Shown here piece after piece: positions 26,895 through 27,832 of a DNA stretch of 37,440 nucleotides. Each line of letters opens with the position of its first letter. Position 1 is the first letter of the stretch. The DNA comes from a virus. Its lineage: Duplodnaviria > Heunggongvirae > Uroviricota > Caudoviricetes. The notes under the pieces were generated by a model. That model worked only from the letters and a program-made list of their open reading frames with translations. It did no database searches and was not told where the DNA came from. The DNA lies in IMG/VR virus record IMGVR_UViG_2541047705_000012; one strand, given 5' to 3'. The position numbers were made by a program, and so were the translations under genes.

Positions 26895-27832
26895 CCCCTG
26901 AATCCTGCCGGGATCTGGCTGTAGTCCACGTTGTCGTAACTGGCTTTGAAGTACGGGTCCTCGCGTTTTTCGGTGTACGTACTTACGGACGGCGATAAGC
27001 GCAGGGAAAGCTCATCCCATTTTTCCCGCAGCTTCGACGGGCTGAGCACGTTACGGCACCAGAACGGATCGCGGCTGACGCGGCTGTACATCTCGCAGAT
27101 TTGTTTGTGAGTACGACCATCCTGCACACACATCAGGCGAATTTCGTTTGCCCAGGCTGTCCAGTTCGGTTCTTTGGGACGAACCACCTCGCCGTCACAT
27201 TCGGCAGCCTGCTCGTACAGGGCGATGATTTTTTTCCAGAGCCACTGTGCGCAGGTCAAATCATCCTGCGTTCCCCACTGGCGCTTTTTAGGGCTGAATA
27301 CAACAGCATCAGGATGGCGAGTTAAAAACTCCTGTTCAGCCGTCTGCGTGTCCGGTTGCGAAGCGTCCGGACGAGAAGTTTTTTTATCTGACGGATCATG
27401 TTTTGATTTTACTGACGGATCCCCGCCAGATTCTGACGGGTGAAAACCCGCTTTTTTGCCAGATTTCGACGCATCAAATTTTGACGGGGCAGATTTTGAT
27501 GCGTCAGATTTTGACGGGTCAGAATCTGACTGTTGAGAAAATGCCGCTGCCTGAAGCTTCGCAACGTTAAGCTGATAAACATTCGACGCATTGCGGTTAC
27601 CCTGGCGACGCGCCTTACGCGTTAACCAGCCTTCTGCTTCCAGCCGTGCGATAGCCGTTCTGACGGTACTCATCCCCGCGCCAATCTGGCGGGCAATGGT
27701 TTCAATTGATGGCCAGCACACACCTTCGTCATTACTGAAATCAGCCAGGCGGGCCATAATTGCCACGCTGGATAACTTCATGCCTGACGCAGCGCAACCA
27801 TCCCATACATAGCCGGTTAATTTAGTGCTCAT
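26891..27832 (-). CDS. Replication initiation protein (O-like; winged-helix N-terminal domain, Ser/Lys/Asp-rich linker encoded by the iterons)
   Basis: 313-aa ORF downstream of cro and CII-like genes; AGAGG ribosome-binding site; internal DNA repeats at 27385-27535. Confidence 0.65.
   Translation of the reverse strand: MSTKLTGYVWDGCAASGMKLSSVAIMARLADFSNDEGVCWPSIETIARQIGAGMSTVRTAIARLEAEGWLTRKARRQGNRNASNVYQLNVAKLQAAAFSQQSDSDPSKSDASKSAPSKFDASKSGKKAGFHPSESGGDPSVKSKHDPSDKKTSRPDASQPDTQTAEQEFLTRHPDAVVFSPKKRQWGTQDDLTCAQWLWKKIIALYEQAAECDGEVVRPKEPNWTAWANEIRLMCVQDGRTHKQICEMYSRVSRDPFWCRNVLSPSKLREKWDELSLRLSPSVSTYTEKREDPYFKASYDNVDYSQIPAGFRG
27385..27535. repeat. Iteron array (about eight copies of a ~15-bp dyad motif CAGATTTTGACGGG / TCAGAATCTGA) inside the O-like gene; candidate origin of replication
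   Basis: Direct repeats visible at 27386-27396, 27427-27442, 27459-27473, 27474-27490, 27490-27504, 27505-27519 and 27520-27534. Confidence 0.55.

Follow-up and report, generated by a model that had tools for sequence, protein, structure and literature searches.

Does the array of short repeats inside the replication initiator gene of the virus record IMGVR_UViG_2541047705_000012 (Caudoviricetes) mark the place where replication begins, or is it kept for some other reason? The whole stretch of 37,440 nucleotides that was analysed is referred to here as the window, and its repeat region spans window 27374–27530, in the linker-coding part of the minus-strand initiator gene. We consider it likely that this region is the replication origin of an SfII/SfIV/CPS-53-like prophage, lying inside its own initiator gene. 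The initial annotation had likewise named a likely origin here, and this reading is supported by the repeats and their symmetry, their conservation among homologues, purifying selection at the DNA level, joint inheritance of array and DNA-binding domain, different repeats in initiators with other domains, an adjoining AT-rich element of low stability, and a layout shared with the origins of P22 and lambda.

The gene and the two coding regions that flank the linker are as follows.

26891–27832, minus strand: initiator gene, a 313-amino-acid open reading frame (ORF) with a winged-helix N-terminus, a disordered linker and an all-alpha C-terminal domain.
27539–27832, minus strand: coding region of the DNA-binding domain (amino acids 1–98), always inherited with the array.
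26894–27340, minus strand: coding region of the C-terminal domain (amino acids ~165–313), without a Pfam family.

The N-terminus matches Pfam HTH_36 (PF13730) at amino acids 23–70 with a score exceeding the gathering score (E = 4.2e-11), and a match to PHROG 391 ('replication initiation O-like') spans amino acids 1–313 (E = 1.7e-134). The gene shares ~98–99% nucleotide identity with the 'replication protein' of Shigella phage SfIV/SfII and with several E. coli phages. The initiator gave no match to Phage_rep_O (PF04492) at E ≤ 0.01, its BLASTP comparison with P22 gp18 was not significant (E = 0.58), and a PDB sequence search returned marginal MarR and PaaX matches only (E about 0.3). On sequence grounds, it is best described as an HTH_36 winged-helix protein that is analogous to lambda O and stands outside its Pfam family. 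The linker (amino acids 100–164) is predicted to be unstructured (AlphaFold, predicted local distance difference test (pLDDT) below 50); the DNA-binding domain has low confidence in the same full-length model (pLDDT 37–69), which was used solely for linker disorder.

The repeats were recovered by Tandem Repeats Finder at 27460–27523, with periods of 15 (4.3 copies, 77% matches) and 30 (2.1 copies, 85%), and by a repeat-family search that returned six copies with start-to-start spacings of 33, 15, 15, 15 and 15. The 15-bp period runs over about 27458–27532, with one further copy 33 bp away. In gene orientation the 15-bp unit is CCGTCAAAATCTGAC, which encodes Pro-Ser-Lys-Ser-Asp, and the 13 bp at its core, GTCArAATCTGAC, form an almost perfect palindrome. 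Six full 13-bp dyad sites lie at 27425–27530, within codons ~101–136.

27518–27530, minus strand: iteron 1, GTCAGATTCTGAC, a perfect 6+1+6 dyad.
27503–27515, minus strand: iteron 2, GTCAAAATCTGAC, the consensus copy.
27488–27500, minus strand: iteron 3, ATCAAAATCTGCC.
27473–27485, minus strand: iteron 4, GTCAAAATTTGAT.
27458–27470, minus strand: iteron 5, GTCGAAATCTGGC.
27425–27437, minus strand: iteron 6, GTCAGAATCTGGC, 33 bp from iteron 5.

A search of the 37.4-kb window for CGTCARAATCTGAC with up to three mismatches gave 18 matches against 5.4 ± 2.2 expected, a number reached in 0 of 100 shuffles. Ten of these 18 matches correspond to the six sites (within 27424–27531), four of which match on both strands because of their dyad symmetry, and no copy of the motif with two or fewer mismatches occurs outside the array in the whole 37-kb window. 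The ~15-bp dyad repeats that had been noticed in the initiator ORF are therefore real by two repeat finders and a shuffle test, as is the Ser/Lys/Asp-rich linker that they were said to encode: the units read P-S-K-S-D inside the 313-amino-acid ORF, and the array-encoded peptide includes SDSDPSKSDASKSAPSKFDASKSG. The earlier count of about eight tandem copies has to be lowered to five strictly tandem copies and one further full site, eight being reached only if two half-sites (CCGTCAG) are included. An ORF at 27409–27591 with repeated RQNL had been described as an antisense artefact of the repeats; it is indeed a repeat by-product, but it lies on the same strand as the initiator gene, the antisense ORF being a different one.

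27409–27591, minus strand: alternative-frame ORF with RQNL repeats, on the initiator strand, a repeat by-product.
27403–27570, plus strand: true antisense ORF with RQILTGQ repeats, a repeat by-product.

In the third unit, the window has an A-to-C change (...CTGCC, Ser-Ala-Pro), most E. coli relatives having ...CTGAC instead.

Whether the array is kept as DNA or as peptide was assessed by comparing synonymous change along the gene in Citrobacter phiNP, Klebsiella Kp4871-1, Escherichia Flotzy and Yersinia YeP2, whose DNA-binding domains share 81–88% amino acid identity with the initiator. Among codons for the same amino acid, 49–65% carried a synonymous change in the DNA-binding domain against 5–19% in the linker (four phages; Fisher p 1e-7 to 1e-4), and linker amino acid identity was nonetheless below that of the domain. 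With the comparison restricted to S/K/D/P/G/A/E codons, synonymous change was found in 96/150 codons of the domain versus 18/136 of the linker, while the C-terminal domain of Kp4871-1, used as a control, behaved like the DNA-binding domain (26/47).

A wider sample came from a scan of genome contigs, which, with one genome per species, gave 64 distinct Enterobacterales loci with 69–100% domain amino acid identity (genera including Shigella, Citrobacter, Kosakonia, Enterobacter, Kluyvera, Buttiauxella, Yersinia, Rahnella, Ewingella, Pantoea, Tatumella, Providencia and Proteus). All 64 loci carry 3–8 units with the core TCArAATCTGA, and repeats are likewise present in five phages. Codon choice is specific to position within the unit: the first Ser is TCA in 333/475 cases and the second is TCT in 226/285, with TCA just once, while Lys is AAA in 268/274 array codons versus 560/915 elsewhere in the same genes; the commonest Ser codon outside the array is AGC. 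It is from this position-specific use of TCA, AAA and TCT that the dyad arises. In Stx2_KH16-043 (64% domain identity), the copy CTTCAGAATCTGAC stands in a different frame, giving Leu-Gln-Asn-Leu-Thr instead of PSESD, and in the sites the two outer positions are changed symmetrically (TTCAGAATCTGAA). Constraint extends to the block that follows the array, the consensus of which (IUPAC notation, TTTSACCCSYCAGAATCTGGNGGGGATCCGTCAGTAAAWTCAA...GATCCATCAGATAAAAAA) is almost invariant, fourfold-degenerate sites included, with 86% conservation of third codon positions versus 55% in the DNA-binding domain across the 64 genomes. Because of the synonymous sites, the codon choice, the copy in another frame and the post-array block, the array is taken to be under selection as DNA and not as peptide, and the protein would tolerate a DNA-dictated sequence because its linker is predicted to be unstructured.

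These observations leave very little room for the view that the array is a mere slippage-prone, low-complexity protein linker with functionless DNA repeats, which we regard as hardly credible. The units do encode a disordered Ser/Lys/Asp linker, and copy number varies only in complete units, near-identical E. coli relatives having 4 to 7 (most often 5) and different species 3–8, with eight in a Providencia metagenome-assembled genome. However, linker synonymous sites are far better kept than those of the flanking domains while its amino acids are less so, position-specific codons create the dyad, one copy is read in a different frame, and amino acid changes maintain or improve the palindrome. 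For example, in many relatives iteron 6 reads GCCAGAATCTGGC, a perfect dyad that costs the protein a Ser-to-Pro change. The counts within E. coli include those from a scan of viral contigs whose matches, near-identical E. coli relatives in almost every case, were used just for copy-number variation. A phase-variation switch was also considered and rejected, since copy number moves solely in in-frame 15-bp steps.

In gene orientation, the array is followed directly by two 24-bp repeats and the least stable part of the gene.

27398–27421, minus strand: 24-bp repeat A, GATCCGTCAGTAAAATCAAAACAT, with a GATC, a half-site (CCGTCAG) and an A-rich tail.
27374–27397, minus strand: 24-bp repeat B, GATCCGTCAGATAAAAAAACTTCT, with a GATC, a half-site (CCGTCAG) and an A-rich tail.
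27374–27413, no strand assigned: candidate DNA-unwinding element with 28% GC, the 30–40 bp of lowest stability in the gene.

The free energy of 27374–27413 is −46.2 kcal/mol, compared with an average of −55.8 ± 4.8 kcal/mol over the window, a stability ~2 standard deviations below the mean. An AT-rich element does adjoin the array. The GATC of repeat A is present in 64/64 homologues and that of repeat B in 55/64. The two GATC sites lie at window 27418–27421 and 27394–27397, and the prophage has its own Dam gene two genes downstream of the initiator gene (25747–26433, minus strand); a link between GATC methylation and origin firing is speculation.

Across the 64 genomes, array and DNA-binding domain are inherited as a unit, and it is the remainder of the protein that varies. 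At least three unrelated C-terminal domains occur behind this unit, the boundary falling directly after the array: Kp4871-1 has the C-terminal type of the window, phiNP, Flotzy and many genomic loci have Phg_2220_C, YeP2 carries a longer variant, and in KH16 a third type is found. Initiators with other HTH_36 domains have repeats of their own in the corresponding position. The linker of SfV orf39 contains five GTGAA-N5-TGCAC-type units together with three GAACCAGTCA units, phi24B O has three GGGGTGGGGCAGGAGCTGCCC units in the linker position, and genome loci from Psychrobacter, Phlomobacter, Thorsellia and Thermomonas have 5–8 regularly spaced units of their own; overall, these other-domain initiators show 3–8 (mostly 5–8) repeats in the linker versus 2–4 approximate matches in control segments taken from these genes themselves. 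From this strong, if indirect, linkage between domain and repeat sequence, we infer that the N-terminal domain of the initiator probably binds the iterons.

The same linkage bears on the possibility that the palindromes work as RNA, the initiator mRNA or an antisense transcript folding into hairpins that control translation or stability. A single strand of the array folds much better than shuffled sequences (z = −4.9), and some of the symmetric double changes would keep hairpins too. However, an A:C mismatch at the second inner pair leaves 4-bp stems in most units, and an RNA structure would not need the repeat sequence to shift with the type of DNA-binding domain. An Rfam scan of 26500–28500 gave no match at E ≤ 1, and no promoter-like site was found on either strand of 26800–28300. 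Four terminator-like hairpins were detected in the latter interval; one of them lies inside the array (27437–27450, plus strand), in favour of an RNA role, but it is not conserved in relatives. We consider an RNA function very unlikely.

The layout of the repeat region can be compared with several described origins. Lambda iterons are about 19 bp long with a spacing of roughly 20–24 bp, while the sites described here are 13 bp on a 15-bp lattice. In the O genes of lambda and Shiga toxin (Stx) phages, dyad iterons followed by an AT-rich tract lie mid-gene, between the DNA-binding and recruitment domains; the Stx phages 933W and P27 have six-iteron variants in which the extra iterons lengthen the protein, and the origin and the N-terminal domain together form a specificity module (PMC7466680). 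The array of the window is also mid-gene and in the linker, with dyad iterons and then AT-rich sequence, and mosaic module behaviour is seen here as well. In contrast to lambda, the initiator is HTH_36 (PF13730) and not Phage_rep_O (PF04492), no P gene follows downstream and the AT-rich tract is weaker. The lambda-like origin-within-O arrangement proposed in the initial annotation agrees with the order of elements; the protein family and the lack of a P-like partner set this initiator apart from lambda. In P22, a rep_origin is annotated within gene 18, which encodes a 271-amino-acid initiator, at gene nucleotides ~353–497, comprising four repeats and then an A-rich stretch, the same relative gene position as that of the window's array. 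P22 differs in that gp18 belongs to PF04492 (E = 7e-38), its repeats are spaced 20–24 bp apart and its own DnaB-type helicase gene 12 lies downstream.

Closer in protein family are SfV orf39, phi24B O and the 'Eru' units of Stx phages, which share the HTH_36 family and have their own repeat sets in the linker; their DNA-binding domains are 31–40% identical to that of the window, with different repeat sequences and a spacing of 21–24 bp. Iteron plasmids of the pSC101, R6K, F and P1 type have direct-repeat sites for a winged-helix initiator beside an AT-rich unwinding element; their iterons are 17–22 bp long, recur at intervals of about two helical turns and are found outside the rep gene, usually together with DnaA boxes. 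The window's array differs from such replicons in its 15-bp spacing, its intragenic sites and the absence of a DnaA box nearby: DnaA-box matches are at chance level, with none inside the array, and no match to the integration host factor consensus was seen in a check by eye. HTH_36 proteins have been listed in the replication regions of Stx-phage Eru units (PMC8951638). The genome paper of SfIV (PMC3851460) makes no mention of an origin or iterons, the Eru papers on non-lambdoid Stx-phage replication regions (PMC8044961, PMC8951638) mention no iterons and describe no replication origin, and within searchable limits the literature on yfdO, SfIV, Eru units and HTH_36 contains no iterons or origin for this family. 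While the principle of an origin inside the initiator gene is textbook knowledge, the origin of this initiator family appears to be undescribed within the searchable literature.

Constraint on the DNA and dyad symmetry point to a protein-binding site, short of origin firing, and the array could accordingly be a cis-acting site for autoregulation, titration/handcuffing or transcription pausing, with replication beginning elsewhere. The AT-rich element is just moderate, and the DUF4222 protein, encoded by the gene that overlaps the initiator start and also co-inherited with the module, could be the binder. We regard such a non-origin site as improbable: the motif has no other copy with two or fewer mismatches, a second cluster resembling iterons was not observed close to the replication genes, the arrangement of iterons and then AT-rich sequence agrees in place and order with the P22 and lambda origins, and an autoregulatory operator would be expected at a promoter rather than mid-gene.

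If the repeat region is an origin, as we consider likely, early transcription from the immunity region (rightward-type, here leftward on the minus strand through the cro-like, CII-like, DUF4222 and initiator genes) would supply the 313-amino-acid initiator. Dimers of its winged-helix domain would occupy the six dyad 13-bp iterons, and possibly the two extra half-sites too, and the resulting nucleoprotein complex would destabilise the adjoining 40-bp A/T-rich stretch, the presumptive place of unwinding. The C-terminal domain, a presumed recruiter of the host replisome, would then bring in host helicase and primase, a mode of recruitment suggested by an operon that lacks phage genes for helicase, loader and primase. 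A coding region can house the array because the disordered linker accepts any peptide that the iterons encode.

Several points weigh against an origin, or against this way of working. The 15-bp centre-to-centre spacing is far tighter than that of lambda, P22, SfV and phi24B (about 20–24 bp), so six side-by-side dimers may not fit as they do in the lambda O-some, and the distance of only about 8 bp between half-site centres is smaller than would be expected of a classical helix-turn-helix dimer. The AT-rich element is of modest strength: it ranks at roughly the 4th percentile of the window, and the immunity region is less stable. No gene for a helicase, helicase loader or primase is present between the initiator and Q (22458–26894, minus strand), and a fold search with the C-terminal domain found weak helical-bundle similarities only and no confident structural relative. 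Low synonymous divergence in the linker could in part reflect more recent recombination of this segment, and the searchable literature holds no report of binding, unwinding or origin activity for this initiator family.

The tight spacing leads to a tentative variant, which we think possible though rather unlikely: 13-bp palindromes on a 15-bp lattice form continuous alternating half-sites every 7–8 bp, on which the initiator could polymerise as a filament and not as discrete spaced dimers. Host DnaB would be loaded without a phage loader, perhaps with the help of DUF4222, and the invariant GATC might tie firing to Dam methylation.

The surrounding minus-strand operon has a lambdoid-style order, with cro-like, CII-like (Phage_CP76), DUF4222, initiator, PerC-like, Dam, LexA-DNA-binding-domain-like and RusA genes, followed by KilA-N, DUF968, Q, lysis genes and terminase; a divergent S24-type repressor lies at 29063–29737. 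From its gene content, the replication module is 'initiator-only'. The gene immediately before the initiator gene is the following.

27822–28001, minus strand: DUF4222 gene (59 amino acids, Pfam E = 8.6e-19), with an 11-nucleotide overlap with the initiator start.

A DUF4222 homologue ends within about 13 nucleotides of the initiator start in about 61/69 related loci, and DUF4222 is a conserved partner of the initiator, probably coupled to it in translation. Over this gene, the SfIV record annotates a competing 112-amino-acid ORF in another frame (27842–28180, minus strand), and PHROG families exist for both readings. The gene directly after the initiator encodes a PerC-like (YfdN) activator with a MarR-like N-terminus.

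The initiator gene is widespread, matching 2725/5426 complete E. coli genomes, 1576 of them with at least 80% of the gene, at up to four places per genome; the best match is to the type strain ATCC 11775 (99.9%). About half of the complete E. coli genomes thus contain the initiator module, as do Shigella serotype-converting phages and many other Enterobacterales. No origin is annotated for it in the records inspected. A located origin would provide a cis element with which prophage induction and copy-number amplification could be tested, also in Stx-phage relatives, would mark a mosaic boundary in the exchange of replication modules and would supply a compact origin-plus-initiator cassette for vector design. 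It would also account for assembly breaks and gene-call frame shifts in the initiator gene, and the array offers a clear example of a coding sequence set by a DNA-binding site and not by the encoded protein.

Two circular 'plasmids' in PLSDB, CP085522.1 (41.5 kb) and NZ_CP081716.1 (37.7 kb), carry the domain plus array with 85–90% identity. These phage-sized records are probably excised phage genomes assembled as plasmids, and they are silent on where replication starts. A search of protein databases for homologues yielded mostly truncated or partial proteins with little diversity. Many database entries for the initiator gene are labelled 'partial' and end at contig edges, suggesting that this shared gene with its repeats is a frequent breakpoint of short-read assemblies. 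Other entries are proteins of 140 amino acids in which the DNA-binding domain continues into the alternative RQNL frame through the loss of one T from the T4 run at 27538–27541; they end at the TAA in GTCAGTAAAA, and one comes from a complete genome. The alternative RQNL frame is read only in such frameshifted database variants, for which a pseudogene, a sequencing error and a real truncated binder are all candidate explanations. In E. coli, there are also deletion fusions in which the DNA-binding domain, cut after its first ~80 residues, runs on into RusA (138 amino acids) or into a large terminase-like ORF; these fusions are decayed prophage remnants, and K-12-type strains retain only the C-terminal 75% of the initiator gene.

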